Below are positions 4,372 through 29,182 of a stretch of 64,000 nt of DNA, piece after piece. Positions within the stretch are counted from its first letter, which is position 1. Every line of letters begins with the position of its first letter. The notes below the pieces were generated by a model that worked only from the letters and a program-made list of their open reading frames with translations, had not been told where the DNA came from and did not search any database. Where the stretch lies: positions 248,001 to 312,000 of the forward strand of contig OZ237772.1 of assembly GCA_965178125.1 (NCBI GenBank), read 5' to 3'. The stretch is from Bilabrum cf. latius (lineage: Eukaryota). The position numbers and the translations under genes were made by a program.

Positions 4372-4472
4372 TGTTATCCGCCAAAATGTGTGTAGTTTTT
4401 ATATAAGTAAACTCTATTTCTACTATATAGTAGAAATAGAGTTATCATAACTCCACATTTTGGCGGATAACA
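4372..4472. other. Left terminal 101-bp imperfect hairpin
   Basis: TGTTATCCGCCAAAATGTG/CACATTTTGGCGGATAACA outer stem, perfect inner palindrome AACTCTATTTCTACTATATAGTAGAAATAGAGTT, asymmetric internal loop. Confidence 0.92.
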
Positions 4473-5904
4473 TAAGAGGTCAATATTAACCACTTCACAA
4501 CATCTTAAGCCGTAGTCCTTCATAATGTCCTTCACTTGAACATAATAATTTAATAGCTATTTATTCATATATCTACCTAATTTAATACCTTCGCGCCGTT
4601 AATGTCTATCTGTTAGACCTTTACTTTACTTAATCTGTTGAGTGAATCCCTAGCCTAAGTCTTAGGATATGCCCGCCCGAAATTGCGGAAATATATAGTC
4701 ATTTAAGAATATATGTTCGCAATTCTGGGCGCGTAGGTGTATTGAGTTTTATATTATGATTTGGTTTTAAGTATCAATTGACATTTACCACTTTAGAAAA
4801 TAACTAAATAAATACTTAAAGAGATTGACAGAAGTATTAAAGTCTTTTTAATACTTCCAATGAAAAATTTAAATTAATAAATAAAACTAAACTAATATAT
4901 CAACTTAATTTATCTCTTTTTTTATTACTTGTCAATCTATACTTAAATAATTGAATATTTAAATATAACTAGAAGGAGATATTAATCACTTTATAAAGTC
5001 TTTTATATGTCATCTCTTCAAAACTTCAAATATAAGGGTATCCCCTTAAAAATACATTCTTTTATCTATCGCCCGAAATTGCGGTAATATTATAGCTATT
5101 CAAGATATATTTCTGCAATTCTGGGCGCGTAGGTGTATTGATTTTTATTTTTCATAATTCTTTAAATATGTTAAAGTCCTTTGTTTGAGTATATGATATA
5201 AAGGAATACAAAGCGGGATAACTTAAAAATGATAAATGTTTTGACGATGACTTTAAAATGACTCAATGAACTGGTTTATGTCAAGTGTATTACTTTGAAA
5301 TGATTAATCACTAGATTAAATGGAAAATATAGGATAATAAAATATGGTATAGTATAATACTAGCGCCCGAAATTGCGGTAATATATTAGGATATTAAGAT
5401 ATATTGTCGCAATTCTGGGCGCGTAGGTGTATTGAGTTTTATATTTTGTTAATTTTGACATAGTTATCTTATAGAGGTGTAATTTTGTAATAAAGATATT
5501 TCTAGTATGTGCTATATTAAATGTCCAGAAATGACGGCCCGAAATTGCGGAAATATATTAGGATATTAAGAGATATTGTCGCAATTCTGGGCGCGTAGGT
5601 GTCTTCAATAATTAATAATCAACTACTTCTTTATTTTGATTAATTTTTTTGACTTACCGTTCATTTTATTGACCACTTAACGGGATATCACAAAAAGACT
5701 TAACCACTTGACGAGATATTTTAAAATAACTAATAATAAATATGACCGCCCCAAATTGTATCTCCAGATATGACCGCCCCAAATTGTATCTCCAGATATG
5801 ACCGCCCCAAATTGCGGAAATATATAAGTATCAAGAAAATTATGTTTGCAATTCTGGGCGCTCACCCGTATTCAATTTTACATATTCACTAACTCATACC
5901 ACTT
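4372..5904 (+). repeat. Left terminal inverted repeat (1533 bp)
   Basis: Reverse complement of 27678-29182 apart from the asymmetric hairpin bulges and one extra 28-bp unit. Confidence 0.92.
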
Positions 5905-6095
5905 GAAGTGGTCCATTTGATCTTGTGTTCATATTTAGAATGTCCTTTAACTTGTATCAATGTATTGAGTACTTCTTCTAACTAGTCCTTAACAAATGAT
6001 TTTGTCTTATGATATGTCTTGGTAGTCTTCACCTATTTAATAACTAATTTACAAGTCTTACCGACAATATACTAAGTTAATAAATCTTGTATCAT
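5886..6095 (-). CDS. Small viral hypothetical protein (69 aa, TAG=Gln)
   Basis: ATG in AT-rich context, open through TAG codons to TGA; divergent from the 6104 gene. Confidence 0.5.
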
Positions 6096-6103
6096 AATAT
6101 ATT

Positions 6104-6511
6104 ATGTATGAGATAATTATTGATGGATTCAAATATAAACCCTCTACTCGTAGAAATAAGAAATATGATGTATTCAAAAATGGTAAGTATATCACTAGCT
6201 TTGGTGATGCACGATATGCTCAATACTTTGATTTGATTGGTAAGTATGGAGATAATAACCATATTGACCCTAAAAGACGACGCCTATACTACCGAAGACA
6301 CGGGAAGACTACCGATACTAATAGCTCAAAATATCACAGTCATAAAATCTTATGGGGAAGTGATAATGCTATAAAGGACTACTTAACAAAACTAGCCAAT
6401 GGAGTATTAGATGTAAAAAGGTATGTTAAAGGGGATACTTTGGAAAAATGGTTAGATGACTATAGGTCTAAAGTGGACGCAAGACTGAAACAATTAAAAA
6501 TATTAAATTAA
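6104..6511 (+). CDS. Basic viral protein resembling a small conserved NCLDV/virophage family (DUF5754-like)
   Basis: PSTRRNKKYDV...SFGDARY..Y...H.DPKRRRLYYRRH...ILW pattern recalled from large-DNA-virus proteins; TAA stop. Confidence 0.6.
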   Translation: MYEIIIDGFKYKPSTRRNKKYDVFKNGKYITSFGDARYAQYFDLIGKYGDNNHIDPKRRRLYYRRHGKTTDTNSSKYHSHKILWGSDNAIKDYLTKLANGVLDVKRYVKGDTLEKWLDDYRSKVDARLKQLKILN

Positions 6512-6668
6512 AAAGTCAATACGCCTAAACGCCCAGAATTGCGAAAATATATCTTGAATAGCTATAATATTACCGCAATTTCGGGCGCCCAAATTTGAAT
6601 CGAGCTTAAGACATCTCGTTTAATTAGACTTAAAAATAATATATTATTATAGTATATACTATATTATA

Positions 6669-7202
6669 ATGTGCTATAAATGTCGTAACTTCATAATCAA
6701 TAAGCTAAAGATTAATGACTGGAATAAGATAGCCCCTCTATTAATACCAGCTGGAGAGACTAGAGAAGAAGACGGAAAGTGTATCTGTGATCACCAAATT
6801 AAGGAAGTTCATTTCGTTGAGTATCCCCCAACTGGTGATATATTTAAATTAGGTTCTGAATGTATTAATAACACATTCGAAAAGGATCATGATGTGTATA
6901 AGGCTTGTATGTATAAGACTTGTGATGTATGCTCTTGTGTTGTTAAACGTAGTAGCTGGAAAAGTCATATTAAATCCATTAAACACGAATTAAATAAAGA
7001 CATATTAAAAGATAAGAGTAGATGCACTGATTGCGATGAGTTCATTGAAAAACATCAATATAAAAAGACTTGTCTTAGTTGTTATAATAAAAAGAGGAAA
7101 TACTCACAATGTAAGAAATGTGAAAAGTATCTTATTAAACCAGGAGCCACTTTCTGGTTTTGTTATGACTGTAACTAGAAGAGAAAGAAATATAAGAAAT
7201 AA
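6669..7202 (+). CDS. Multi-zinc-finger viral protein
   Basis: CICDH...GSECI, C2H2-like CDVC...HIKSIKH and several CxxC pairs; reads through TAG 7176 to TAA 7200. Confidence 0.75.
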
Positions 7203-7242
7203 TGTTTAATTTACGCCAACATATTATATCGTCTTTATATAT

Positions 7243-7476
7243 ATGTACGACTTGAAAATTATAATGTCTCCCAAGTTTTTAAAAGCTTGTAAAAATAATA
7301 AAGTTATTGAAAAGGCTATAAAAGCTATAGAGGACAATTTAAAAGATGAAATTAAATTATGTTTTGATGGCAATGAGTGGGATATGTCAAATGGATCATA
7401 GACTCTTTTTTATAATCTTCAAAGTAAAGAAGAACGAGAAGAAATATTAAAGAAAAATGGAACAATTACAGCATAA
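7243..7476 (+). CDS. Small viral hypothetical protein (77 aa)
   Basis: Preceded by CGCCAA...TATATAT motif; one TAG; TAA stop. Confidence 0.6.
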
Positions 7477-7562
7477 ACAACTAGAAGAAATAACAGAAGA
7501 CAATATGTTAAAAAATCGTTTAATTAACGCCAAAATTTATATCTACTATATATATAGTAAAT

Positions 7563-9218
7563 ATGACTAATAAAGGCAAGACATACACTAGAGGTAAAAT
7601 ATCTTACACGTATGGTGATGAACCGACAAAAAATCAAAAAGATAGTGATAATTTAGAAGCCACTATTAAGGGACTACTTGATAAAGGATTTGAAGAGGTA
7701 CCAACTACCAAAGCAAGTATTAAAAAAATACCTTTATATTCTTATGTATCTTATGTAAGTAATATCAAGGGAAAGCCACTATTTAGAAGAGGTGGGGTAA
7801 TTAACTCAATATAGAAGGATGGAGACTATTTCACTTTATATAACTTAGTGAGTCGTGTTCATTTTAGCGTTCAATAGTCTAACCTAGTTCGTCTTTTTTA
7901 TAAGATGACTAAAGCTTAGACGAAAAAACTTAATAAACCAACCGGTAAATTAATTGAAGTAGAAGATGAGGACGACAAAGACAAATTTAATTATAAACCA
8001 ATATTAAAGAAACTATATTATGAAGAAGGTAATGTAGTCAGTCGTGATGCGTTATATGACCTAGCTAGACAAAAAGATAAACGTATTAAAAGACGACAAG
8101 TAGAAAAGTGGTTAAATAACTAGATGCTCCACCAATTGACCAAAAAACGACCTAAACAGTCAGCAGTAAGTTCTTTTGTACCTACTAAGCCTTTCTCAAT
8201 TTACGCCTTGGACTTAATAGACATGCAAAAGTATTCAGACACTAATGACGGCTATAATTGGATATTAAATATAATGGATATATTCACAAAATACCTATGG
8301 AGTATTTCATTAAAAGATAAGACATTAGTTAATATAATTCGTGAGATGAAGAAACTATTTAAGAAACCTAATTGGAGAAAACCGACTGTTATGTTAAGTG
8401 ATAATGAGTTTAATAAAGAGGCATATATTAAATTTATGAATGACAATGACATAAAACCACTATTCACCATCGCAGGAAATCCATAGTCTAATGGTGCAGT
8501 TGAAAGACTTAATAGGACTATAAAAGAATAGATTAGAAAAGACTTTGCTATTAAGAATGACAGTGATGGTGTTTGGCATACGTCATTATAGAGACTAGTA
8601 AGAGCATATAATAAGAGAAAACACAACACTATAGGAATGTCTCCACTAGAAGCAATGAAACCCGAAAATTTAGAAGTAGTTAGATCTAGAATTGAAAATA
8701 AGAAATTATCAAATAATTTTGACGGGAATGATAAAGATCTTAATGTAGGGGATAGAGTTAGAGTATTACTTGAGAAGAACAAGTTTAAAGGAAATTTATT
8801 TAATTGGTCTAGAGAAGTCTTCACTGTTAGATAGAAGACCAAACCAAGAAATCCTAAGTAGAGGATTAAATATAAAGTAATGGACAAAGAGGGAGAACCT
8901 CTTACTGGATTCTTTAATGCTTCACAGTTATAGAAAATAGACAATGTAGAACACGAAGATAAGGTAAATGATGACATAGACAAGGAAAGTGAAGAGCCTG
9001 AAATTGATAATGTTGAAGGTTTAGAAGTAGAACCAGACACAATAGAGAAGTTTTTAGATAAAAGACAAAATAAAGATAGACTTATTGAATACTTAGTCAA
9101 ATATAAGGGATATTCTAATAAGTTTAATGAATGGATTACCCGTAAGAAATTAGAATAGGATTATGGGAAAGACCAAATACGACCACTTGCGAAAGACTAT
9201 TCTGATAGATAGAGATAA
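7563..9218 (+). CDS. Retroviral-type (rve) DDE integrase with C-terminal chromodomain (551 aa)
   Basis: Single frame through ~12 TAG codons; YALDLIDM, MLSDNEF, NP(TAG=Q)SNGAVERLNRTIK; chromo-like IEKFLDKR...EYLVKYKGYSNKFNEW; TAA stop. Confidence 0.95.
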
Positions 9219-9448
9219 TTAATCTAGTAATATACTTTATGGCATAATACCAGCGCCCCAAATTGCGATAATATATTAGGATATTAAGATATATTTCCGC
9301 AATTCTGGGCGCGTAGGTGTATTGATTTTTATAATTTTATCATTTTATGTTAGCCAGTGTATAGATACGACTTTTGAAATATTAATTTTTTCTAGTATTT
9401 ACCATATTAATATAAAACAAAGTCAAAGAAATTATTTATAATAAGTAT

Positions 9449-10129
9449 ATGGAATTGTTAAATATAACAAGATACAAAAATAAAGACCTTCTAAAAAGAG
9501 TAGTCAAGTTAAGTGAAAAGTACAAGTGGTCTCGTGATGACTTAAAAATGTTATGGATTAACAAGCATTATTCAAGTTTATAGGGTGAAATAGATGATGA
9601 AGGGGACGAGATAGCAACTATAAATTTAGTGAGACAACCGTCTAAAATAGAACCTATCTAGTTAAAACCTCCACAATTAGAACGACAATAGGCTATATTG
9701 GAAGATGTTGAATTAGATAGCGAAGACATAGAGGATAATAAAGAGGAAGACTATTTGAATGATACATATAGTGATACAAGTAGTGAAGTAGTGAGTGAAG
9801 TCATTGAAGAGAAACCAATTAAAGAGAAACCAAAACCAAAAATCAATATTAGTGATCTTACAGTGAGTGATAAACCTGAATATGTTTATTGTGTAGAGAT
9901 TAATGATACAAAGGTATATTTTAACAAAAAGAATACATAGACTTATCCTGATGCTTTAAGAAGAGGTAAATCACACGCTGATAAAATGAGAAAGCGAGTA
10001 TTAGGACATATTCATTTTGATGAGACCGATATGTATGACAGCAACTTATGGTATGCTAAAGTGTGCTGGGGTGATAGTGATAAAATTCATGATAACTTTA
10101 CAAAGTTTAAAAATATCTTATTAAAATGA
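9449..10129 (+). CDS. Viral hypothetical protein with acidic central region (226 aa)
   Basis: Continuous frame with TAG=Gln ending at TGA. Confidence 0.7.
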
Positions 10130-10148
10130 CCACTATATATATAGGTAA

Positions 10149-10853
10149 ATGAAAAACACAATTTGGAAGTTTTTAAATGAATACTTTGATGTCTTTAGTT
10201 TAATACTTAAAATACGAGACGAAAACCCTAGTGATGTCATAAGTACTATAATAGCAATGTATGAAGAGAGCGAAATAGAAGACCCAAAAGAGATCCATAA
10301 ACATATGAGTGAAATACGTCATAACTTGGAACTTAGATTTAAAACAAAGTATGTTGAAGTATTAAGCACAGATCACGATGACAAAGCAGAAAGTTATCTC
10401 CATCTTAATAATATATTATGTAATATTGAAGGAGAGCAATATGTGGAGGATAGCAAAATCAAGATGTCCGAGAAAAAACAAGTATTTATAAAGACTTACG
10501 GTGATGTGGATAAATTCAATGACAAAACAACGGCATGAGCCGGAACGGCCACTGCCGCGCTGCCCCGCCCCCTTCCCTAAGGAAGGAGACGAGGGAATGC
10601 CTCGCAAGCTGCTGGTCGCACTGGCGGTTGCAACCTCGCGTTGGTAGACCGGAGCCTGTGTTCGAGTCTCGAACGCATCGCCACATCAACCCCGAACCCC
10701 ATTCGGCGTTAGCATTACGAGACTGTCCAAGAGATGGAACAAGAAGACGAAAAGACTAAAACAGGAGTAGAAAAAGAAATAGATCAAAAGTTAAGTCTAT
10801 TATGTAATACTTCTAAACAACCAGACAATATTTGTCTAGATTATAAATTGTAA
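10149..10853 (+). pseudogene. Viral hypothetical gene interrupted by a GC-rich insertion
   Basis: Same frame resumes after the insert (ETVQEMEQEDEKTK...DYKL, TAA); the insert introduces TGA at 10536. Confidence 0.7.
10502..10717 (+). mobile_element. Short GC-rich nested element, diverged relative of the 14912-15562 copies (left boundary 10502-10527 uncertain)
   Basis: Shares CCGCCCCT, TCGCAAGC, TGGTCGCAC, CGGTYGCAACC and CATCAACMCCGAACCCCATYCGGCGTTAG with the minus strand of 14912-15562. Confidence 0.7.
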
Positions 10854-10965
10854 TATCAGTATGTATTTTAATTATAAAAATACAAATTGACAGGTTAGAT
10901 ACGACCGCCCCAAATTGCGGATATATTATAGCTATTCAAGATATATTTTCGCAATTCTGGGCGTC

Positions 10966-11280
10966 TCACCGTGTTGATTTTTCCACACGTTTTAACTCAT
11001 TCATAATTTCTAAATCAAGTAAGCCATTAATAATACGAAAATCTTTGTAATCTTGCGCCATCTAAAACATTCCTTCATATTTAGGCAACATAGCCATTTT
11101 AAGACCTAGGATAGACTTAATATCTTCGTAGGTAATAATCTAGTCTTTTTCTACTTCTTTTAGCTCTTCAACTTCACAAATACGAAGGTCCTTTCCATCA
11201 AAAAATTGATCAAAAGCTGTCTTTACCTTTTTTAATATATTGTTCAAACTTTTTATGTTATAAATATTATTAAAGTTCAT
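10966..11280 (-). CDS. Viral hypothetical protein (104 aa)
   Basis: CGCCAAAAAATATTTACTATATATATATAGAAATG promoter/start; two TAG; TGA stop; bounded by two palindromic repeats. Confidence 0.7.
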
Positions 11281-11436
11281 TTCTATATATATATAGTAAA
11301 TATTTTTTGGCGGAATAATTAAACTTAGGATCTAACCGCCCGAAATTGCGGAAATATTATAGCTATTCAAGATATATTTGTGCAATTCTGGGCGCGTAGG
11401 CGTATTGACTTTTGTATTATTTTGTATTTATTTGTA

Positions 11437-12075
11437 TTATATTTGGTACCCTAACTAGAGGCAATTCCTCAATTTATCGTGAAGCTATTCGTAAGTATTA
11501 TAAATGTAATAGCTAGAAGGGTTCAACTCTTTGATATAAGAGTTACGGTCTTCTAACATAGACTTCTATTTATCTACTTTCTAATTCTTTAAAGTCTTCT
11601 AGAATAGTGAATTAGATGGAAGACATACAACTATACTTTCTTTTTTAAATAACTCATTAGCTAGACTTAACTCTTTAGTAAAGAATATTACTCTCTTCTC
11701 GCTACCTTCATTCAACCAGTTATCTTTTACCCATTGAAGGGCTTCTTTACTGGCTTTTCTATTAAGTATATTATAATTACCCCAATCACTTTTTAACTTA
11801 CATTCGTCTAGTTTCATAAGTAATTCGGGCTCCTAGACATATACTCCTAGAGTACTATCTAAATCAACAAGTAAACAGTCTTTAGAACTAGACCGTAATA
11901 TTTGACAAGCGGTAGACTTACCACTACCTTCAGGCACACAGATACATATTTTTTTACGTTTATGTAAAGGTTTATCCCATAACCACTACCAACAAGACAT
12001 ACCACCAGAGTATGCTAGAGGTAGTAAGACACTTAAACCTCCTACAACGACACTGCTTGAACTGATTCCATCCAT
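11437..12075 (-). CDS. P-loop NTPase/kinase-like protein with hydrophobic N-terminus (212 aa)
   Basis: ICICVPEGSGKST followed by LLVDLD; continuous with TAG=Gln; TAA stop. Confidence 0.65.
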
Positions 12076-12118
12076 TTTATTATATTAATAAAAAAGATAT
12101 TTCTATAATTAAACTCAA

Positions 12119-12841
12119 TTATCCTGTTAAGAAAATACAAGGTACGACTTTATATTCTACTCCATTAGCATCAGTAGAAGTACCACTTGAAAAGTCTTCA
12201 TCTACTAGAGCTTTTGCTACAATAGTCTAATCAACAGAGACTGGTTGAGGATTAGGCGCGTAGACATATCCACTATCAGAGCTATTTATTAAGTAGTCAC
12301 CCGCACTTACATCTCCTCCATTTTTATTTACTTTCACAGCTCCATCACCTAAAGATGCCACAAGTACTTTACCATCATCATGGTGTTCTCCTACATATAC
12401 TCCAAAAGGTGGTGAATGTTGAGATGCTTGACTTACGACATATTCATTAGTTGTGGGTCCTTTATTAACTACACTATCAAGAGTAACCACTGACCCAATA
12501 CCAGCTGGTAAACTAGAAGCAACATCACTACAAGATGCTACATGTGTACCGGTAAATGATAAGAAGTTGGTTGCTGTCATAGTACTGGTTTGAGTGCCAT
12601 CACCTGCGACATTGATTGAGATAGATGCACCTGCTGATGCTGAGTTTTTACCTATTCTCCATGTGAAAGACTTAGCATCTTCATTAGTACCACTCATAAT
12701 ATAGGGTAGTGATTGACCATTGAAGTTAAGTCCAAAGTTAGCGGCTCCATCAAAGCCTTCTGCTTTAATTGATTCTACTTCAATAGACTTACTCTTTAAT
12801 TCATATTCATTTTTGTTTAAGAGATTGTATATTCCTGCCAT
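12119..12841 (-). CDS. Fibre/spike-like protein with C-terminal intramolecular-chaperone-like (peptidase G2-like) domain
   Basis: Gly/Ser/Thr beta-rich N-half, then SFTGTH...VASLGDGAVKV...GDYLINSS..GY...TIVAKAL..DF...VPCIF, as recalled from virus fibre C-termini. Confidence 0.6.
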
Positions 12842-13084
12842 TACTTATATTATATTAGCTAGACTAGATATTTTTTTTTTAAATTACGAGATTTTAAAAA
12901 GTTAGTAGTATAAGATATAGTATAATACTAGCGCCCCAAATTGCGATAATATATTAGGATATTAAGATATATTTCCGCAATTCTGGGCGCGTAGGCGTAT
13001 TGATTTTTATAATTTAGTCATTTTTAATATAGCCACCTCTTACAATGTAATATTTTTAAATTAAAATATTATAGTATATACCAT

Positions 13085-14527
13085 TTAAAGACTTCTTAAT
13101 CTTGAATCTAACCAAGATATTAGAGTATCAAGTCTCTTATTAAGACCTGAACCTTCACCAGTCTTACTTTCACTTGCTCCACTAGATGATTGACCTTGTG
13201 CTTCTTGTTCTTGTTCTTCCCGTTCTTGTGCTGCTCGTGCTGCTCTTGTTCTTGCTTCTTGACCTTTACCAAGATCTTCACCTGCATCGCTTGCTACAAA
13301 TTCTCCATCTGGTTGTCTTTCTAATAGTGTCCCTTCTGTCTCATCATCTAAAGGTTCATTACCTCTTGCTATCTATTCAGCAGCTTCATTCATTACATCA
13401 CTTAATGCGGCTTCTCTTCGTAAGTCTGGATCTTTTTCCTTAGCTCGTCTAAGTCTTTCTTTAAGTGGAGTTCCTGACGGTTCTGCACGACTAAATGGGT
13501 TTGTTTGTCTTTTTCTAAGTGATAATTGTCTTTCAATATCTTTCTTTGCGTCATCAAACTTGATTCTATTTAAATTTACAAATCTAGTTTTACTGTCAAG
13601 TCCCGATTGTCTTCCAGTCTTAATATCTTGAAATAAGCTCTATAAATCATAATACTACATATCATCTATTGGCACACCATCATATTCATCACCTAATAGT
13701 GCTTTAAGTCTATCTTTTAGTACTGGTGCTTTAGATGTGGCTTTTGTTTTATAAATATCATTTATTGCTTCCATTCTTTTATTAAGTACATCTCTTTTTA
13801 GTTTAACTCGATCAGTTTGGCTTCGTAATCGTTCCAAAGCATAGCCTTTTGACTTTTTATCTCCTAATCTTTCTAATAGAGGTACTATTTGTGTTCCTTT
13901 TGCTCTTTGTCTAACTTTTACAAGTCTTGATGCCATTGAATTAAGTTGAGCCTTAGAGAGACCATTTAAAGTTGAATCACTTACACCTCTCTCTTTAAGA
14001 AACTTCTTCAACTAGTCTACTGTTAAGTCATTCTCTAAGTCTTTGACATCTTTAGGTAAATTGTCTATCTCTTCTGCTTCAATAAATAAGTTATTTAATG
14101 CGTCGTTAAGTTTTGACTCAGCTTTACCTTTTTGAAATAGAGTATTAGATGAGTTCATATATGGAATATTCTATATCATCTTAGCAATAGCTTCAGCATC
14201 TTCATCAAGTAGTTCATTATCTTTAGCTAGTCTTACAACTTGATCTATATCTGCTACTTTATACTTTTTACCTTTCTTACTGTTATCTTTAACTCTTTTT
14301 AAAGTCCTTTTCATAAGATTTGCTATTCTTTTTAATTTTCTCTTTTCTTCTAATGGCATAAAGTCCTCTTCTAATTGAATTTTTTGTTTTCGTTTAGCTT
14401 CTCCTATAGCTGCTCTTATGGCTCTCTCTTCGTTTCTTACCTTTCGTCTTGCTTGACTTGTAGGGGCTCTACTTTCCACAAGTCCATCGAGTAAGTCTTC
14501 CAATACTGCTGTTCTTTTTTTAGACAT
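13085..14527 (-). CDS. Charged helical viral protein with SAP/HeH-like DNA-binding motif (480 aa)
   Basis: Single frame with TAG=Gln joining 14171-14527 and 13655-14011; LTVD(Q)LKKFLKERGV...LSKAQL. Confidence 0.7.
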
Positions 14528-14566
14528 CGTATAATTATATTATGATAATAGATAATATTATTAAAT

Positions 14567-18443: not shown

Positions 18444-18462
18444 TTTTCTTAGTATTAAGTAT

Positions 18463-19011: not shown

Positions 19012-19371
19012 TATGACATATACCATAAATTTTTAGATATTGAAAATTGATATCTATAAGGTGGCCATATTAAAAAGACTAAAATATAAAAATGAATACG
19101 GGTACGCGCCCAGAATTGCGGAAATATATCTTAATATCCTAATATATTATCGCAATTTGGGGCGCTGGTATTATACTATATCTTAAGATACTAAATTTTT
19201 AAAATTTCGGAATATTGGATTTTTTCAATGAGTCAAATAATTAATAAAAACTTTTTCAAAAAGTCAATACGGGTACGCGCCCAGAATTGCGGAAATATAT
19301 CTTAAATAGCTATAATATTACCGCAATTTGGGGCATTAGACAAGACTTATTTTCTTGATAAATGTTATAGA

Positions 19372-20298
19372 ATGGTAGAGATTCAAGAACCAGATATCTT
19401 TTATATTAACTCATAGGATACTATAACATCTATTAATACTAATAGACCAGTATCAATACATGAACAGCGTCAAGGTAATATCTTGACAAATTCACAAAAC
19501 TACTTATTATCACTTGACCGATGGACTCTTAAATGTCGTATTCCTTTATTTGTAGCAAGTAAAGAAGTAAAGAATAGCGATAATTAGTCAATTTATAAGA
19601 TGTCGTTTGTGAAGAAGAGTGATGGAACTACTTACACTCGTAATATTGTCTTAACCAAGTCGTTATATTATAGTCTTAAGACCCTATCTAATGAATTTAA
19701 TAATACTCTTAGTGATTTATGTGGAGATGCTAGTATTCCAACTGATAGTATAGTATTTGAATATCACGGTAAGACTAAAACTTTTAGTTTCACCCGTTTA
19801 GCGGCTTTTACAAGTGCGTGGACTTTAAGTTTTAACTTTCCTTTATTCTCTATATTTGAGACATTTGAATATGACGATGAAGGTAAAGACATCAAGAGTG
19901 ATACTTATATAAATCTATTAGATGGATATAATGAATAGAGTGCTTCTACCTTAGATTAGTTTCCTACTATGGAGTATATTCAAATTATTAGTCCATCACT
20001 TCCAATACTTCCAGAATTTACGCCATCATATAAAAGTACATCTAGTACAGAGATACAAAGTGAAAATATCTTAAGTGATTTCAAGATAGACAATACAACA
20101 GGAACGAGTTTTATTAAAATAAACTTTAGTAGTGGAGGAAATCATAGATGGCAATAGTTCTATAGATCAGCATTTAATAGTTATAGTATAGTACCGTATT
20201 TTAGAGATACTTTTGGAAACTTATACGAAATACCCTTTACTTTTGGACAAGGACTTAATATAAAAGCTCTATTTAAAAGTAAAAAGTTAATAACTTAA
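19372..20298 (+). CDS. Minor capsid (penton) protein
   Basis: YLLSLDRW....IPLF near the N-terminus, LPILPE, ILSDF, C-terminal YFRDTFGNLYEI...IKALFKSK as in virophage pentons; immediately upstream of MCP. Confidence 0.8.
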
Positions 20299-20340
20299 AG
20301 TAAAAAATAAATAAATATCTTTAGTCTTAATATATTTATA

Positions 20341-22227
20341 ATGTCTGATATGGATAATGTACCTGTAGCAGCACAAAGCAAAGTCGTAGATGACGTCTCA
20401 GAACTACCAGTAACTCAAATAGCTGACGAAAAACTCAACTTTGTGGGTGATAGTCAAGCTATTACTCTAGGAACTACCCTTGGATACTCTTCCAAGTTCC
20501 AAAACCACTATGAACCAGATGGTGGTAACTCTAGCGCAACTAATGCATTTAGAAGTAATTACACTTTTGTCGTGCCATCAAATCAAGGAATGACTGACAG
20601 TAATCCCCGTCTAAGAGTTTCATTTGACGTATACATCTATGATAGTTAGAACAATGGAGCAGTAGCTCAAACTGATATCGTCAATAAGGTAGCCCCTTCT
20701 ACATTTATGGTAAATTCAATGATCACAAGTTCCACAGTTAAAATGGGAGACTTATCTCGTAGTTCATCACCTTATCAATTAGTCAATTTAATAGCTAGAA
20801 GTCTTGACCGTGCCACTCTAGCACAAATAAGTCCTGTCTTTTAGGCTGATAACACTTGGGAATTTAATACTGCCGCAAATGGTCTTGCTAAGTCTGTCCT
20901 TCAATGGGGTGTAAATGATGATAGTATTATGGAAGCTCGCGGTCCTGGTAAGAATTACCGCGCAACACTTGAAAAAGTGGATGCTAATACTCCAATACCT
21001 AATAATAATGTAACACCAACTCAAGACTATGTCAAATTACATATTGAAATCTCTGAAGCACTTCTTGCACGTCCTTTCCAATATATGATGGGTGGTAATG
21101 CTAGACCTTTTGTTGATCATCCACAATTAAATGTTAATTTACAAATGAGAAATAACTTAATTGATAAGATGTTTAATACTTCAAGTGATTGGAATGGAGA
21201 CTATGCTTTTGCTTTATCCGATTGCTAGATCCATTTTGATGTCTTTACTTATAATACTCATCTTAACTTCTTGAAGAAAGTACCTAAACAAATATTCTAC
21301 AACTCTGTTGACTTTGAACTACATGAAGAGCCTAAACTTGATAATCCTATCACTACTAAAGGTGTCCATACTTTTAATAATTATCAACTTTAGACTTGCC
21401 CTTCTTGGTTTGCTGTGTGCTTAGTTGATTCTCAATATGGAGAAGCTAGTGGTACACCTCATAGAACACTTGCCATTAACAATATTAAAGTACAACTTAG
21501 GTCTTAGGGTTCTATTTTAGGAGAACTTACACAAGACGATATCTTTAGACTTAGTGAAAGAAATGGATCAAATAGTGAGTATGCTTCTTTTACTAACTTA
21601 GATGTAACTGTAGGAGGTGCTTCTAAAGTATACGGATCTAATGGCTGGCTCTTATTTAGACTTAGTGATTTAAATACTCCTGAAACTATTCAAAGCAACA
21701 GTGCTGACCCTATTAGTATTCGTGTTCAAGTAGCCTATGACGAACCCCCAACCGCTGCTATGTCTCAAGGATATAAAGCTCAATTATTCTGTGCCTATGA
21801 CAAGATTATCGTGAATACTAGAGGTGCCGCTATTGAATGGCGTGAAGATAGTGCTTCTGTTGACCCTGAGAAAGTGGCTAAACCTTCTAATTATACATTT
21901 TCTAATATGAACTACTCTAAGAACGTATTAGGTGGAAGACGTCGTAAAGTGATGCAATTCTTTAAGAGAGCCTTTAACAAAGCTAAAGACTTAGGACGTA
22001 AAGTGGTAGACTTTGGAAAGAAAGCTAAAGCTAAATTTGATAAAGTGAAACCAGCTCTTCGTAAAGCAAGGCAAGCAGTAAGTGAATACTTACCCGATGA
22101 AGTGAATGACTTAGCTGAACGTGTTGGAGCAGGTCTTTTAACTAGTGGTGGAAGTCTTTTGACCAGTGGAGGTAAGAAATTAACTAAGGCTCAACTTATG
22201 AAACTTAGAAAGTAGCTCAATATGTGA
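20341..22227 (+). CDS. Major capsid protein (virophage-type, 628 aa)
   Basis: One frame joining the 20341, 20929 and 21760 fragments with TAG=Gln; beta-rich, ISEALLARPF; di-glycine sites and basic C-terminal tail; gene order ATPase-PRO-penton-MCP. Confidence 0.85.
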
Positions 22228-22384
22228 GTCGTAAATTATTAATTAATATTTAAAAGTTATAAATATTGACTAAATTTAAAAACTCAATACGGGTACGCGC
22301 CCAGAATTGCGAAAATATATCTTGAATAGCTATAATATTACCGCAATTTGGGGCGGTCATACCTTAAGACTAGTTTAAATATTA

Positions 22385-22417
22385 CGCCAAAAAATATCCA
22401 CTATATATATAGTTATG
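22385..22417 (+). promoter_or_regulatory. Conserved viral promoter-like motif CGCCAAAAAATATCCACTATATATATAG just upstream of ATG
   Basis: Related copies precede starts at 7243, 7563, 11280(-), 22415, 23331 and 23921, partially 10149. Confidence 0.7.
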
Positions 22418-22837
22418 GCAGCAGTATCACCGTGTGAAGACTTACTTTATATGGAGTATTCATTCTTATTCTTACCACATAGAGAAGACCCAACACTTAA
22501 ATCTCAAAAGGTTTACTTAGATGATGAACTTGAAGGAGATCCTGAAGACATTGTAATAGATAAAGATTAGATATAGGTAAATAATAGAGGTCATATAAAG
22601 ACATATGTAAGTGAAGGAGGCTTTACAAAGTTAAAGGTAGGATAGATAATTGAAGAGATGGAGCAAGAGGTGCGTAATTAGAATGGTATTCATTATGATT
22701 GTATTTTTTATCATAAAGTTGAACACGACACCAGCACAGATATTTATAAAGTAGTATGGGGGTGGTATCCAGCAGACTTTCCAACAAATGGATGCGACCC
22801 TGCTATCTTGTATAAGAAACCCCCTAATATGGATTAA
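22415..22837 (+). CDS. Viral hypothetical acidic protein (140 aa)
   Basis: Promoter motif, continuous frame with four TAG, TAA stop. Confidence 0.7.
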
Positions 22838-22842
22838 TTATT

Positions 22843-23160
22843 AAAAAAATTCTTTGAGCTAGTAATTATACCGATGGTTTGACTACTTGGCGAAGTCATT
22901 CGTAAGTCATTGTTGTAGCGGAGCCAGAACGTGAACTGATGCACCTGAAACCCTATTAAGTCTTACGACTAAGTCTGCTACAACCACTTACGACTACTTC
23001 TACAGTATCCAAACTCCCTTCAAAGACTTGCAAGACGTGTGCTTTGTCATAAGTATGACTTACAGAACGACTCACGGCGATGTCAGTGGTGGGAATCGAA
23101 CCCACGACCTTGACTTTGTGAAACAATCACGATATCACTAGACCAAGACCACAACGCACC
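22843..23160 (-). ncRNA. Putative Pol III transcript: degenerate tRNA-like head, long imperfect hairpin, oligo-T terminator
   Basis: Minus strand TGGTCTAGTG (A-box-like), AGGTC-GTGGGTTCGATTCCCAC (T-arm/B box); nested pairings across 22851-23026; T7 run at 22843-22849. Confidence 0.6.
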
Positions 23161-23195
23161 AAGAGGTAAAAAATATTATATTCAAATAAATTTAA

Positions 23196-23929
23196 AAATT
23201 CAATACACCTACGCGCCCAGAATTGCGGAAATATATCTTAAATAGCTATAATATTACCGCAATTTCGGGCGGTCATATCTTAAGACTAGTTTATTACTTT
23301 CGCCAAAAAATATCCACTATATATATAGTAATGTCAGATTATTTAGACTTCCATTTAATTAAACAAGTTGATGATATATGTTTCACTGGTGTTGAATTCT
23401 ATTAGGGATATCGAATAACTCAAGGTGAACAGCTTAAACAACTTAATTACTTATTCGTAGATAACAAAAAGGATATTGATAAGTTTGTATCTATTTCATT
23501 TGTAAAAGAAGCAGATAAGGATGAGTTTGAGCTATTACTGGTTAATGAAAATGGAAAATTAGAAGACGACACAGATATATTTAAAACAGAGAGAGACCTT
23601 ATTAAGTACTTGAAAGAAATAGATTTAAACAAAAAAGACTATTCAAATGATGATGTTATGTTGTCAACATTTCCAATTATAATGATGAGCATACGAGATC
23701 TAGTAATCAATAGCAATATTGGTTCAATTGAGAGTATCAAAAAAGGTGATACAGATCAATTTGACCACTTGAAAGATAACTAAATAAATTCAATACACGT
23801 ACGCGCCCAGAATTGCGGAAATATATCTTAAATAGCTATAATATTACCGCAATTTCGGGCGGTCATATCTTAAGACTAGTTTATTACTTTCGCCAAAAAA
23901 TATCCACTATATATATAGTAATGTCAGAT
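23196..23929 (+). repeat. ~144-bp direct repeat (23196-23339 and 23786-23929): palindrome + promoter + ATGTCAGAT
   Basis: Near-identical blocks precede two otherwise unrelated ORFs, both starting MSD. Confidence 0.9.
23331..23783 (+). CDS. Viral hypothetical protein (150 aa)
   Basis: Promoter motif, one TAG, TAA stop. Confidence 0.7.
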
Positions 23930-24271
23930 AAAGAAGATATCAAAATTGAACTATCTCAAAATTTTATAGATGAATGTCTTGTTAAAGGTGTAGGTGTCGA
24001 TGATGTAGTCAGTAGTATAGGTAAAAGTATTGAGAATCACTTTGATAAATATGTATGGATGAAACCAAAAGACAAAGGTGATGGTTATCGTTAGAATGTC
24101 TTTAGTTTTAAATTCGACAATATTATCAAGAAACTCGAAAGTACATTGGAACAGTTAGAATATGAAGAGCAAGTGAAACACGTCTAGGAGCTGATGTATC
24201 GTGTTGAAAGAAGTGAATGTGAAAGGAAGAAGAGAGAAGAAAAAATTAAAAAGACAAAAAGAGACCACTAA
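23921..24271 (+). CDS. Viral hypothetical protein (116 aa)
   Basis: Promoter motif, two TAG, TAA stop. Confidence 0.7.
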
Positions 24272-24333: not shown

Positions 24334-27132
24334 TTAATTTTGTTGTTCTAGTGGATCATTATCCTCATCAACAAATAAAGCGGGGTCTAAGTCAACCTCT
24401 ATCTCTTCATCGGGTAATTGAACCTCTTCATCATCAACAAATATATCTACTTCACGAGTCTTTTTCTTGTTAGACCAGATATATTCCATCTCATCAATAA
24501 TATCCTAATTAAATTCTACATCATAGTTAATTTTCTTTTTCTTACAAGTCATAAATATGTCTTTCCCAAACATTGATTTATATACTTTAAGTATTTCGTA
24601 ATAAAGACCTTTATCAGTGGATAAGTCAACTTTACTTCTTCTTTGGCAGTCATACACTGTCCTATATTCATCTGTTAAGTCTTGATCTAATACTTTCTTT
24701 TTGATATTATAATCAAGATTAGTTCTTTTAAGACCTAAAGTATCAATCATCTTATTAAGTAAGACTAATTTTCTAGAACTAGACTTAGCATTGATAATAT
24801 CAAACTCGCCTTTATTAATTGCTTTCACAAGTAAGTGCTTATCATCTTGTCTAAAGAATTTATTGAAATTAAATAAATTAGATAACTTACCTTTATTAAT
24901 AAAGTACTCTTTGTATTTGTCAATATCACCTTCATCTAAGTCTAAATATTTATTAATCTTCTTGACATTAAGACAATTAATATCAAAATTTTCAAGTTGT
25001 TTTTCTTTAATGGTATCTTTGATTTCTTTATCCTTACATCTGGTGATCTTAACAGATAAATCATAAGACACGTCATAACCGGTATCAATTAACTACTTGA
25101 TCATATGTAATTTAGGGTTTGTCTTATAACAATCTACCTTGTAAAGATAATTACGATATAGTTTTTTGAATATGATTTTAACTTTGCTCATTTCTTCTTC
25201 TACTTTGTCTTCTACTTCTACCTCGTTGAAGTCGGGATATGTATCACTGACAAATTTAACTAATTCTTCGTAGTCTTTTAAAGAGGTAGCCATAAAAGAT
25301 TTAACTTGTGAAAGACTTTCATATGTGCTAGATCGTCCTTTCTAGTAATCAAAAAATATAGTGATATGTGATGGGTTTCTACATCTGTTAAGCTATTGAA
25401 CCATTTGGGGAGGTGTGATAGTATGACCTTTGAAATAACCAAAGACTGGTCTAGTCATAGTGCTATCTATCCCGTAAATGACTTTAGGTGAGAAGATAAT
25501 GATATCAAACAAATCCATATCATAGTCTTTGTCTTCGCTTTCTGCTGTAAGTATTAAGATTTTATTTAATTTCTTATCTTTCTCGTTTTCTATTATTTTA
25601 AGACTAATTAACTCATTGATTATATCAGCTTTTGTCTTACTATCACTAGCAAGCATAAATTTCTTGTGTTTCATTAACTCATCTCTAAAAGTCTGTTCGT
25701 CATTAACAAATACAGTTTTGGTGCCCTTGAACCTGTTTCTGTCATTCCTAATATATTGATAATCTAATTTTAATAATTCTAAGAAATATAGAGCATCTTG
25801 AGATAAGTCAGCATCTGCTACTATGAACTACTTACAAGTGGTAAGAGCACGAATAAGAGTAATGAAACTCATTGGTCGCCTACCATATAAAGTCGTAGAA
25901 CTTAAACAGTGTTCTAAGATACTATTAAACTCATCTAAAAAGACAATATAATCCTTAAAGTTATAATTGCTAAGACTAACAATACTTTCAGGAGTAATAA
26001 CAATACTATCACCCTATTTGTATTTATGGTCTTGATAGAATTTAGTTGATTTTGGAAGACTACGCATCTATTGCTTACCTAATAAAATACGACTAACAAC
26101 TGATAAAAAGCTGTCATCTACTCTATTAAATAAATCATTAGCAGCAGTTGTCTTTCCAGAACCAGCCCCCGACTTAACGGCATAGTTGATACCTTTCTTA
26201 AAGAATTTAATATAACGACCTTTGTCGTCAGCAGTCAAATATCTACGGTCAATCTTCTAATTGACTTTCTTGACTACTTTATTCTTGAATATCTTGTATC
26301 GATAATATAGGCTAAGTCGTTTCTTTTCACTATCTAACTAATTAAAGAACCATTCAACACATTGAAAAGTGGAATTTTGTAATAATCGAGTAAAAATTAT
26401 CTTGTTCTTAGTCGACTAATAGCTTTCTACGTCTTGTTTGCTCCATTCATCAAATATATCATATACCTTATTACCATCTACTGGATTTAAGTATTTAGCG
26501 ATATAACTTGTAGCTCTACAAACTAGATGCCAGTTATATGAATTAGAATAATACTCTTTACCTAATTGATATAAGTATTGTTTGTATTCTTCGGGTTTAA
26601 TCATATAACGGTAGTCTTCAGCTGTAAGTTGTGGTGAATAGATATTTTGTAGTATGAACATCTTGACGTCAGTTGGTATTCTTTTCACGGATGTCTTTTG
26701 TATTAGTTCGTATTTCTTACCGTTGATAGAGCTAGGAGGACACATGATAAAGCTATCATTTGTGATCACATCTATATGTTCTTTTCTATTTACTGACCTC
26801 TTACTAAACTCTTCTTCATACTTAAAATACAAATGATATCCATTGGGAGACTTGACAGTGTAAGTATTCATCTCTTGAATAAACTTATCAACACTACCAT
26901 ATTCCGCAATAAACTTACCATTTTGAAATTCAGTTTTATTTTTCTCTTTTTCACAATCTAAGTCAAGGACAAAGAAACCTGCACGTCTTCCAGTAAGTAA
27001 TCCAACATTAAGATTTGACTTTCTGGTGATAAGTTTAGTAGATTCCAAATTCTACCAAGACTTAATAAGTGGTTGTTTAGAGTTGTGAGCTATTGAGAAA
27101 TAAACAGGGTTAGATATGTGTTCGGTCGTCAT
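24334..27132 (-). CDS. Prim-Pol primase/polymerase + PriCT + SF2 (origin-binding-protein-like) helicase fusion (932 aa)
   Basis: SKQPLIKSW(Q), NVGLLTG, FVLDLD, SPNGYHLYF; FDEWSK; KSGAGSGKTT, VVSRILL, FLDEFNS, ADADLS, SPKVIYGID, MVQ(Q)LNRCR; single frame to TAA. Confidence 0.88.
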
Positions 27133-27162
27133 TCTAGTATATACTATACTAAAGATAATTTT

Positions 27163-27375
27163 TTAAGTCATTTTCTAGACGCACTATTTTGGCTTAAAGG
27201 ATTGAGATGGATTTTCGCGCACAACTAGAGTATTTTTAAATTTTTCAATTTCTGCTGGGGATTTCCCGATTAGTAAATAACTTATAGTCTCTTGAAACTC
27301 TATTGGTAAGTCTTGTAATTGATGTATTGGTTTATTGATAACTTGATTATTTGATTTGGTATCTATTAAATCCAT
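27163..27375 (-). CDS. Small viral hypothetical protein (70 aa)
   Basis: ATG in AT-rich context; reads through two TAG to TAA. Confidence 0.5.
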
Positions 27376-27407
27376 TATTAATAATACTATAATAATAGAA
27401 TATATTT

Positions 27408-27617
27408 TTAAGTCTTATTTAATCCTTCTGTATCTGGTTCATCCTTAACCTGTTTTCTCTTCTAATAGTACCCCTTCCATTTCTCTTGATTCTTTTGGTA
27501 ATATTTCTATTTAGCTTTTTTAATAGCTTCTTTCTTTTTGGTCTCCTATTCCTTGAGTCTTTGATAATCTTCCATAATGTCTTGAACCTATTTTAATACA
27601 TCTTTAATATCTGGCAT
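27408..27617 (-). CDS. Small Lys/Gln-rich helical viral protein (69 aa)
   Basis: MPDIKDVLK(Q)...KYYQKNQEKWKGYY; four TAG; TAA stop. Confidence 0.6.
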
Positions 27618-27677
27618 TACTATAGTAATATACTAGATAAATCTTTAAGTTTTTAAAACTAGAAAATGACTTAAAAT

Positions 27678-29182
27678 AAGTGGTATGAGTTAGTGAATAT
27701 GTAAAATTGAATACGGGTGAGCGCCCAGAATTGCAAACATAATTTTCTTGATACTTATATATTTCCGCAATTTGGGGCGGTCATATCTGGAGATACAATT
27801 TGGGGCGGTCATATTTATTATTAGTTATTTTAAAATATCTCGTCAAGTGGTTAAGTCTTTTTGTGATATCCCGTTAAGTGGTCAATAAAATGAACGGTAA
27901 GTCAAAAAAATTAATCAAAATAAAGAAGTAGTTGATTATTAATTATTGAAGACACCTACGCGCCCAGAATTGCGACAATATCTCTTAATATCCTAATATA
28001 TTTCCGCAATTTCGGGCCGTCATTTCTGGACATTTAATATAGCACATACTAGAAATATCTTTATTACAAAATTACACCTCTATAAGATAACTATGTCAAA
28101 ATTAACAAAATATAAAACTCAATACACCTACGCGCCCAGAATTGCGACAATATATCTTAATATCCTAATATATTACCGCAATTTCGGGCGCTAGTATTAT
28201 ACTATACCATATTTTATTATCCTATATTTTCCATTTAATCTAGTGATTAATCATTTCAAAGTAATACACTTGACATAAACCAGTTCATTGAGTCATTTTA
28301 AAGTCATCGTCAAAACATTTATCATTTTTAAGTTATCCCGCTTTGTATTCCTTTATATCATATACTCAAACAAAGGACTTTAACATATTTAAAGAATTAT
28401 GAAAAATAAAAATCAATACACCTACGCGCCCAGAATTGCAGAAATATATCTTGAATAGCTATAATATTACCGCAATTTCGGGCGATAGATAAAAGAATGT
28501 ATTTTTAAGGGGATACCCTTATATTTGAAGTTTTGAAGAGATGACATATAAAAGACTTTATAAAGTGATTAATATCTCCTTCTAGTTATATTTAAATATT
28601 CAATTATTTAAGTATAGATTGACAAGTAATAAAAAAAGAGATAAATTAAGTTGATATATTAGTTTAGTTTTATTTATTAATTTAAATTTTTCATTGGAAG
28701 TATTAAAAAGACTTTAATACTTCTGTCAATCTCTTTAAGTATTTATTTAGTTATTTTCTAAAGTGGTAAATGTCAATTGATACTTAAAACCAAATCATAA
28801 TATAAAACTCAATACACCTACGCGCCCAGAATTGCGAACATATATTCTTAAATGACTATATATTTCCGCAATTTCGGGCGGGCATATCCTAAGACTTAGG
28901 CTAGGGATTCACTCAACAGATTAAGTAAAGTAAAGGTCTAACAGATAGACATTAACGGCGCGAAGGTATTAAATTAGGTAGATATATGAATAAATAGCTA
29001 TTAAATTATTATGTTCAAGTGAAGGACATTATGAAGGACTACGGCTTAAGATGTTGTGAAGTGGTTAATATTGACCTCTTATGTTATCCGCCAAAATGTG
29101 TGTAGTTTTTATATAAGTAAACTCTATTTCTACTATATAGTAGAAATAGAGTTATCATAACTCCACATTTTGGCGGATAACA
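27678..29182 (-). repeat. Right terminal inverted repeat (1505 bp)
   Basis: Reverse complement of the left TIR; lacks one 28-bp tandem unit. Confidence 0.92.
29082..29182. other. Right terminal 101-bp imperfect hairpin, identical on the + strand to 4372-4472
   Basis: Direct comparison of the two sequences. Confidence 0.92.

Follow-up and report, generated by a model that had tools for sequence, protein, structure and literature searches.

The window analysed here, a 64,000-nt stretch of contig OZ237772.1 from the eukaryote Bilabrum cf. latius, contains an integrated virophage at positions 4372–29182, the genes of which use TAG as a sense codon. The element is 24,811 bp long, has a GC content of approximately 30 % and forms a sharply bounded island, the GC fraction being 0.29–0.35 over most of 4001–28000 vs 0.55–0.69 in both flanks. 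It begins with TG, ends with CA and is framed by a 5 bp target-site duplication, CAGCG, at 4367–4371 on the left and at 29183–29187 on the right, so that the boundaries given in the original prediction proved to be exact. Its terminal inverted repeats (TIRs) lie at 4454–5904 (1,451 nt, without a long open reading frame (ORF) and with five copies of a hairpin repeat) and at 27678–29100, the right TIR being 100 % complementary to the left one. TG...CA termini, TIRs and a short target-site duplication, all of which are marks of rve-type insertion, are thus present, and the element was inserted by an rve-type integrase as a linear genome with TG...CA ends. When the empty site was rebuilt by coordinates, i.e. 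without the element and with a single CAGCG, a host frame of 544 codons was found to be open, with its 5′ part at 4086–4371 (+ strand, frame open from 3978) and its 3′ part, which continues the frame across the empty site, at 29188–30536 (+ strand). Since the host frame is continuous across the rebuilt site, the element lies inside a host ORF.

Each end of the element is additionally marked by a 101-nt near-palindrome (4372–4472 on the left and 29082–29182 on the right) that consists of two 19-nt arms around a 63-nt core. The two copies are identical and share the same absolute orientation, i.e. they are direct and not inverted repeats. As DNA they fold with an energy of -32.2 kcal/mol (z -13.3), which none of 200 shuffled sequences equalled, and relative to the TIRs the core stands in a 'flip' arrangement at one end and a 'flop' arrangement at the other, as in hairpin telomeres. 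If the lineage is active, these near-palindromes would be a hint that the Prim-Pol protein encoded by the element replicates its ends in the manner of hairpins.

Gene content and affinity of the element

The genes of the element were taken to be the 23 ATG-started ORFs of at least 60 codons that are obtained with TAG as sense, which comprise 5,833 codons in all. The affinity of the element is most apparent from its two capsid genes. The major capsid protein (MCP; 20341–22227, + strand, 628 aa, six TAG codons) matches the Pfam family MCP_V20_C (E-value 3.2e-7; 30.4 bits vs a cut-off of 27), and in a PDB sequence search its residues 68–533 align with the mavirus MCP (6g45, E-value 1.2e-15). Among 1.84 billion representative proteins, 60 relatives of the MCP were found, many of which span the region from approximately residue 20–30 to approximately residue 620 of its 628 residues. 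The penton (minor capsid) protein is encoded immediately upstream (19372–20298, + strand, 308 aa, five TAG codons) and in the PDB sequence search matches its mavirus counterpart (6g41, E-value 4.8e-13) and, more weakly, that of Sputnik (3j26_N, E-value 4.7e-5). These matches to mavirus proteins, and the alignment of the MCP with metagenomic MCPs over approximately residues 28–621 of 628, bear out the virophage identity that had been proposed for the element. Further upstream on the same strand are a cysteine protease-like ORF (18463–19011, 182 aa, three TAG codons) with a weak match to Peptidase_C57, for which a PDB sequence search gave no meaningful match, and a packaging-type P-loop ATPase (17376–18443, 355 aa, six TAG codons, one of them within the Walker A motif). 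Walker A and Walker B are both visible in the ATPase sequence, and a homologue search with it returned one partial relative only.

The order of these genes recurs in metagenomic data. When IMG/VR was scanned with a single MCP query, nothing was returned, and an MCP alignment query returned one locus, the virophage-like contig L001 (17.1 kb), which encodes homologues of ORF 15696–16514, the ATPase (E-value 1e-28), the protease (E-value 1.7e-23) and the MCP in the order of the element. The protease and MCP homologues are separated by an ORF of the size of a penton gene, and each of these ORFs is intact under the standard code. ORF 15696–16514 (+ strand, 272 aa, five TAG codons) has an L001 homologue that directly precedes the ATPase, which is the MV14 position of the mavirus-type order. 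It is the candidate for the NTase named in the original prediction, a label that found no support, as the ORF has no Pfam match and its single-sequence AlphaFold model, with a mean predicted local distance difference test score of 47.8, is unusable. Visual inspection alone shows a G-S...D-x-D pattern.

The integrase (7563–9218, + strand, 551 aa, 12 TAG codons) joins an rve core (Pfam, 8.8e-8) to a C-terminal chromodomain (Chromo, 4e-7). Near the opposite end of the element, a 932-aa replication protein (24334–27132, − strand, 11 TAG codons) contains an N-terminal Prim-Pol domain (Pfam, 8.9e-14) and a helicase. No match to a family B polymerase (PolB) was obtained from Pfam in 20 of the 23 ORFs, the three unscanned ORFs being 69, 70 and 77 codons long, and no tyrosine recombinase was found in the element. 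Hence the combination expected of a Polinton/Maverick was not observed: rve is present, no PolB family was matched in the 20 scanned ORFs, and Prim-Pol and helicase domains occur instead. Judged from its sequence, the element is an integrated mavirus-like virophage with a primase–helicase replicon, in which no protein-primed PolB (pPolB) was found. Mavirus-like virophages form part of the class Maveriviricetes.

TAG as a sense codon in virus and host

The 23 ORFs contain 85 TAG and no TAA or TGA triplets in frame, with TAG occurring in 20 of them, and they terminate at TAA (17 ORFs) or TGA (six ORFs). This agrees with the original prediction, in which nearly all genes of the element were said to contain TAG and all to end at TAA or TGA. 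As the ORFs were defined with TAG read as glutamine (Gln), the in-frame count is partly circular, and a non-circular control was run on 5905–27677. Under the standard code, this region holds a single ORF of at least 300 codons, compared with seven when TAG is treated as sense, two when TAA is and one when TGA is, and the number of codons in ORFs of at least 200 codons amounts to 953, 4,849, 2,285 and 1,398, respectively. Among off-frame stop triplets, TAA is the most frequent, the DNA being AT-rich; chance would therefore favour TAA, yet only the freeing of TAG restores the genes, which excludes random decay. The proposed re-annotation with TAG as Gln thus yielded 23 ORFs, with the long genes being restored only when TAG is sense, and the motifs in which TAG had been noted at conserved positions were all found, namely (with q for TAG) NPqSNGAVERLN at codon 308 of the integrase, SGqAGAGKS at codon 116 of the ATPase and MVQqLNRCR at codon 580 of the helicase.

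The host genes in the window present the same picture. A transporter of the HCO3-/borate type (1282–3597, + strand; PF00955, 1.8e-74) carries seven in-frame TAG codons, which are flanked on either side by Pfam and PDB matches, and ends at TGA. A coiled-coil ORF of 4,930 codons (30847–45636, − strand) carries 36 TAG codons and ends at TAA; where its codon 3304 is TAG, three paralogous repeats have CAG, and 23–24 of the 24 context positions are identical. In each of the eight host ORFs that were checked, the terminator is TAA or TGA and never TAG. TAG is a sense codon in the host, in which TAA and TGA are the stops, and the pattern of translation table 15 (TAG in frame, TAA and TGA as the only terminators) is found in viral and host ORFs alike. 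In the coiled-coil ORF, a unit of 511 residues occurs five times in tandem, with hardly any variation between the repeats. The transporter and a formate–tetrahydrofolate ligase (58828–61365) are single long ORFs with no obvious introns, and the transporter has GVTS-type low-complexity inserts between its conserved domains.

These results bear directly on the view that the element is a decaying provirus and its in-frame TAGs are nonsense mutations. Such decay could be suspected from the two host-repeat insertions and the one truncated ORF in this copy (described below), and from the fact that the longest ORF under the standard code has 302 codons, each large gene being fragmented. It is nevertheless extremely improbable, given that all 85 interruptions are TAG even though TAA is the commonest off-frame stop, that host genes carry in-frame TAG likewise, that the copies of the element differ by 16 synonymous vs three non-synonymous codons (among the differences listed), and that Gln is approximately six-fold enriched at the alignment columns occupied by TAG, two of which are essentially invariant Gln.

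The residue encoded by TAG is indicated by homologues of the viral proteins. At 29 TAG positions in the MCP, integrase and helicase, homologues of less than 50 % identity have Gln in 51 of 233 cells (22 %), compared with a background of 3.5 % Gln in the same alignments and 16 % Gln at true CAA codons. The BLOSUM62 sum over the TAG-position cells is 211 for Gln, 131 for Lys and 76 for Glu. A search of metagenomes, which had been suggested together with the original prediction, provided standard-code relatives from IMG/VR: all 22 helicase relatives (24–31 % identity) have a single standard-code ORF of 793–1,106 codons, two of which end at TAG. For the column test, 21 of these were aligned, as L013 had the same match, ORF coordinates and length as L012 and was dropped. 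At helicase TAG 355, Gln is present in 20 of the 21 relatives (19 CAA, one CAG), and at TAG 580 in all 21 (15 CAA, six CAG); over all 11 helicase TAG positions, Gln occupies 53 of 220 cells vs a background of 3.4 %. Closer relatives, which share 76–87 % identity and were compared as protein (P0002, P0064, P0065, P0078 and P0079), have Gln in 39 of 52 cells at TAG positions. Finally, among the differences listed between near-identical copies of the element, codon 54 of ORF 22415–22837 changes from TAG to CAA. Relatives in which the TAGs appear as random nonsense mutations, the finding that was named at the outset as speaking against a native code, were not seen, the two helicase columns being almost invariant Gln. 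The prediction that TAG belongs to a native Gln code of the virus and does not reflect decay is thus upheld by the Gln columns, the standard-code relatives and the TAG/CAA difference between copies.

It might still be supposed that TAG is sense and encodes a different residue (Lys, Glu, Tyr or Leu), or that it is passed by context-dependent read-through and not fully reassigned. Lys is indeed the second residue at TAG columns, with 40 of 233 and 46 of 220 cells (17–21 %) in the two sets of alignments, and no tRNA was seen in the window. The Lys share is, however, also high (15 %) at true CAA columns, and the BLOSUM62 sum is larger for Gln than for Lys. The standard-code relatives have Gln at helicase columns 355 and 580, and TAG is exchanged for CAA between near-identical viral copies and for CAG between the host paralogous repeats. 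No terminal TAG was found in any of the viral and host ORFs checked, and this set of explanations can be considered very unlikely.

The two genomes differ in codon usage. The 233 Gln codons of the virus comprise 85 TAG (36 %), 139 CAA and nine CAG, whereas TAG makes up approximately 11 % of Gln codons in the host ORFs checked (69 TAG, 460 CAG and 103 CAA). In the AT-rich virus, CAG has been almost wholly replaced by CAA and TAG, as long evolution under a code in which TAG is Gln predicts. The numbers of TAG, CAA and CAG codons are 6, 25 and 0 in the MCP, 12, 8 and 2 in the integrase, and 6, 1 and 1 in the ATPase, and if the tRNA that reads TAG is scarce, the late gene with the highest expression would be expected to use TAG less. 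Taken jointly with the identification of the element as an integrated mavirus-like virophage, it is highly probable that the in-frame TAGs of the virus are native Gln codons shared with the code of the host.

Copies of the element, its regulation and a possible helper

The viral stretch, measured as 81–93 % of sampled words, is present in six public runs from two studies that bear two organism labels. A further run, X7, contains next to none of the words of the element, and only pieces of 22–33 nt align. In run X1, a 12,463-nt contig with a depth of 40.6 spans the host flank and 27 nt of the element. The depth of viral contigs is approximately 490–530 in X1 and 1,025–1,296 in run X2, where the flank bin has a mean word depth of 41.6. 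In these two runs, viral contigs thus reach 12- to 31-fold the depth of the flank contig, values that are not copy numbers and to which AT/GC bias may contribute, and they are taken only to suggest that the abundance of the element greatly exceeds that of the single locus analysed here. In run X5, host flank positions 3300–3963 are not covered, possibly because of low depth.

The high-depth contigs in X1, X2 and X5 skip 10519–10716 and 14912–15562, the two GC-rich stretches of the element, with joints at 10518>10717 and 14911>15563. As the high-depth form skips both, these stretches of 198 and 651 nt are host repeats inserted in this copy alone. The 198-nt insertion shortens ORF 10149–10538 (+ strand) to 129 codons, compared with 168 codons in the insert-free form. 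Hence the description of the element as complete needs a caveat for this copy, which carries two host-repeat insertions, one of them truncating this ORF. The 651-nt insertion is composed of four parts, A1 (14912–15087), B1 (15101–15230), A2 (15231–15406) and B2 (15433–15562). In X1 and X2, loose ends at 15087/15088 correspond to other copies with extra sequence between A and B, and bins over the insertion reach a depth of 2,460–5,541; the 198-nt insertion shares only a 32-nt end with it. The arrangement resembles the split direct repeats, A1-[ORFs]-B1A2B2, described for Ngaro tyrosine-recombinase retrotransposons that target endogenous mavirus-like elements in Cafeteria (PMC8547959), and the 651-nt insertion seems to derive, by internal deletion, from a host retroelement present in many copies.

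When the run contigs were compared over 3300–23200, 62 differences were found, of which 40 are listed. Among these 40, 15 fall in the intergenic region 22924–23073, five are in other non-coding positions and 20 affect 19 codons, of which 16 are changed synonymously and three non-synonymously. Codon 54 of ORF 22415–22837 is TAG in this copy and CAA in the high-depth form, and the differences listed affect no further TAG codon among the 64 others that the compared region contains. Taken together, the identical TIRs, the predominance of synonymous differences and the insertions private to this copy indicate that the insertion is young and that its lineage is subject to purifying selection, as opposed to being a fossil. 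A second record, P0077 (an ENA contig of 48,603 nt), encodes an identical MCP and integrase and a helicase that differs at residues 252, 515 and 541; it represents either another copy or allele or another assembly of the same element. The MCP and integrase of this 48.6-kb contig occur in a protein collection with TAG read as Q, so at least one gene-calling pipeline has read the element in this way.

The remaining ORFs of the element are distributed over both strands. On the left, three ORFs on the + strand precede the integrase: a DUF5754-like ORF of 135 aa (6104–6511; E-value 5.9e-6, just below the cut-off; no TAG), homologues of which occur in seven of 23 IMG/VR loci, a Cys-rich ORF of 177 aa (6669–7202, one TAG) that is zinc-finger-like by eye and has no Pfam match, and an ORF of 77 aa (7243–7476, one TAG). 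An ORF of 226 aa (9449–10129, + strand, four TAG) follows the integrase. The − strand encodes ORFs of 104 aa (10966–11280, two TAG), 212 aa (11437–12075, seven TAG; P-loop, with a weak AAA_18 match of E-value 0.0042, below the cut-off), 240 aa (12119–12841, one TAG), 480 aa (13085–14527, five TAG; Lys/Arg/Glu-rich, with a weak SAP match), 107 aa (14567–14890, no TAG; very basic, with a partial homologue in L001) and 173 aa (16709–17230, three TAG). Downstream of the MCP are ORFs of 140 aa (22415–22837, four TAG, including the codon 54 discussed above), 150 aa (23331–23783, one TAG) and 116 aa (23921–24271, two TAG) on the + strand, and beyond the replication gene lie ORFs of 70 aa (27163–27375, two TAG) and 69 aa (27408–27617, four TAG) on the − strand.

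The gene blocks are punctuated by an intergenic repeat of approximately 70 nt, present in 17 distinct copies and five mirror copies in the left TIR. Its arms, CGCCCAGAATTGC and GCAATTT(G/C)GGGC, are invariant and able to pair, and the loop of approximately 30 nt is variable. These hairpin repeats occur at 6507–6606, 9224–9339, 10876–10991, 11307–11422, 12902–13017, 16503–16721, 19084–19354, 22275–22374, 23191–23290 and 23781–23880, with five in each TIR; they are located at the ends of gene blocks and also fill the ORF-free TIRs. They may serve as transcript 3′-end or terminator hairpins or as protein-binding sites.

Two kinds of motif are found upstream of the genes. A near-identical motif, an A-rich stretch followed by TATC[CT]ACTATATATATAG, is located 1–5 nt before the ATG of six genes (7546–7558, 10133–10145, 11283–11297, 22401–22413, 23317–23329 and 23907–23919), including the integrase; the distance is 5 nt at the integrase only and 1–2 nt at the other five. 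Eight genes, those encoding the integrase, MCP and helicase among them, are preceded at -22 to -35 by a looser motif, TATCT[AT]. TATCT[AT] is present in eight of 23 upstream 50-mers vs a fraction of 0.10 of random 50-mers from the element, and ACTATATA in six of 23 vs 0.01. The two kinds of motif suggest that the element has two promoter classes.

According to the favoured explanation, the rve–chromodomain integrase placed the linear virophage genome into a host protein-coding ORF, thereby giving rise to the TG...CA ends and the 5-bp duplication, and the genome is replicated by the Prim-Pol–helicase protein without a pPolB. The virus is translated by the host machinery, for which TAG is sense and TAA and TGA are stops, and has evolved under the same code; full-length viral proteins can therefore be made only in cells that decode TAG as Gln. 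From the family to which the element belongs, it can be expected that the provirus would stay silent until a giant virus infects the cell, and that the transcription machinery of the giant virus would then recognize the virophage promoters. The genes of any such helper would, like those of the virophage, be translated in a cytoplasm in which TAG is Gln.

With regard to the helper, an alternative is that the element is a Polinton-like virus or a transposon that multiplies without a giant virus and is not a functional virophage. Both an integrase and a replication protein are encoded by the element itself, neither a giant-virus sequence nor a helper came to light, no helper sequence having been examined, and the high relative depth of the viral contigs in two runs was not accompanied by any sign of a helper. 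Moreover, 'TCTA', the late-promoter core of mavirus and the giant virus CroV (PMC8547959), is not enriched upstream of the genes (six of 23 vs 0.30 of random 50-mers), and a helper, if there is one, is probably not CroV-like in its promoter. On the other hand, sequence similarity links the capsid and penton proteins to the mavirus and Sputnik structures, and the genes of the morphogenesis block are arranged in the mavirus-type order. Moreover, those relatives with this type of capsid that have been cultured require giant viruses, as is known for the family (PMC8547959). Helper-free multiplication is therefore rather unlikely.

Several observations weigh against the reading of the element as an integrated mavirus-like virophage that shares a TAG = Gln code with its host, the absence of TCTA enrichment being one of them. 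A mavirus-like virophage is expected to have an FtsK/HerA-type packaging ATPase and an adenain-like cysteine protease beside its capsid genes; here the ATPase scores 25.2 bits with AAA_10 and 25.9 bits with AAA_22, and the protease 16.3 bits with Peptidase_C57, all below the respective Pfam cut-offs. Gln is not the top residue at many TAG columns, several TAG positions are in variable regions, and among distant homologues of the MCP it occurs at only two of six TAG positions, in two of nine sequences each. The TAGs of the host transporter are situated at variable alignment positions and are uninformative as to the residue, and the assignment of Gln in the host is based on one paralogous codon together with the translation apparatus shared with the virus. 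The 64-kb window contains no tRNA genes, so the decoding machinery was not seen; it likewise yielded no Rfam families. No RNA run was found among those that carry the element, and because of its two insertions this copy may be impaired and may not itself be infectious. Dependence on a helper giant virus is assumed purely from family membership; current activity is an inference too, as is the basis of the code, for which a tRNA-Gln with the anticodon CUA and a release factor blind to UAG would be expected. All in all, the explanation as a whole, that of an integrated mavirus-like virophage with TAG = Gln in both virus and host, can nonetheless be held with great confidence.

A more tentative proposal is that the virophage lineage to which the element belongs is active at present and is bound to a host lineage with TAG = Gln. 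This possibility, which should be regarded as somewhat doubtful, arises from the TAG share of 36 % vs approximately 11 % in the host, the standard code of free relatives, the near-identical genomes under two organism labels and the 12- to 31-fold depth that differs between samples. If it is true, a whole system of giant virus, virophage and host would operate under a variant code, and the reassignment of a stop codon would have failed to shield the host from viruses. Reassigned stop codons are frequently regarded as a barrier against viruses and horizontally acquired genes. The distant relatives of the element all use the standard code, yet the element itself is thoroughly adapted to TAG = Gln, with TAG preferred over CAG, which indicates that the barrier is crossable; once crossed, it works in reverse, as the virus is then confined to hosts with TAG = Gln. 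Surveys of endogenous virophages conducted under the standard code are likely to miss such elements or to misjudge them as decayed, and the element provides a concrete handle for seeking a giant virus that uses this code as well.

Comparison with known systems

Mavirus uses the standard code. In Tetrahymena, whose stop codons are reassigned (ciliate code), the Tlr1 elements are capsid-encoding and integrated; they differ from the element described here in that they belong to a different element group, reside in the ciliate germline and occur in a host in which TAA and TAG are both reassigned. Mavirus itself has homologous MCP and penton proteins and a TG...CA-type insertion, with a target-site duplication of 5–6 bp (PMC8547959), in line with the 5 bp found here. 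It has a pPolB (PMC8547959), whereas the element has the Prim-Pol–helicase protein only and 85 TAG sense codons, and the identity between the two MCPs is low (E-value approximately 1e-15).

A closer parallel is offered by the endogenous mavirus-like elements (EMALEs) of Cafeteria burkhardae, AT-rich genomes (30–50 % GC) that reside in a host genome of high GC content (Hackl et al. 2021, PMC8547959). As in the present element, EMALEs have TIRs, target-site duplications of mostly 3–5 bp, an rve integrase and an ATPase–protease–penton–MCP block, and some types, the mid-GC EMALEs, lack pPolB and have a long primase/helicase ORF (PMC8547959). They also carry insertions of GC-rich host retroelements, preferentially in intergenic positions (PMC8547959). 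In contrast, the present element uses TAG = Gln, the term 'genetic code' being absent from the available text of the EMALE paper (PMC8547959), has no tyrosine recombinase that could be found and ends in direct-orientation 101-nt near-palindromes. The statement that the gene set differs from that of mavirus consequently needs to be refined: no PolB was found and a Prim-Pol–helicase protein is present, as predicted, but such a replicon is already known in EMALEs (PMC8547959).

With respect to the code, the nearest precedent is Streblomastix strix, in which endogenous Polinton-like virus MCP genes with TAA and TAG = Gln have been reported, and the authors take the code shared by virus and host to indicate that the two have long been associated (Bellas et al. 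2023, PMC10120064). Both cases involve an integrated virus with a double jelly-roll (DJR) capsid in the non-standard code of its host. The Streblomastix genes, however, belong to the Metamonada/Trichomonas-type MCP group and are not of the virophage type, and both TAA and TAG are reassigned there, whereas TAG alone is reassigned here and TAA is the main stop (PMC10120064). In the available text of that article, the observation takes up one sentence and a methods note (PMC10120064), while the encoded residue, standard-code relatives and variation between copies were tested for the present element.

Giant viruses may be subject to similar changes. Metagenome bins of giant viruses have been described for which alternative codes, code 15 being among those tallied, gave the best gene calls, and the coding density of one Imitervirales bin rose from 13 % to 93 % under code 6 (Nat Microbiol 2026, PMC13524828). 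These data suggest that giant viruses of stop-reassigned hosts exist, although there is as yet no giant virus isolate from a variant-code host (PMC13524828). Unlike the integrated element, the bins are metagenomic and without a host link, and virophages are unmentioned in the available part of the article (PMC13524828).

A virophage with a variant code was not found in the literature covered, subscription journals and supplementary files being outside that coverage. An endogenous DJR virus in the variant code of its host and a PolB-less primase–helicase replicon in virophages are already known. What appears to be new is a virophage-type element in a TAG-only code, together with unusually complete evidence on the encoded residue, on standard-code relatives and on ongoing selection.

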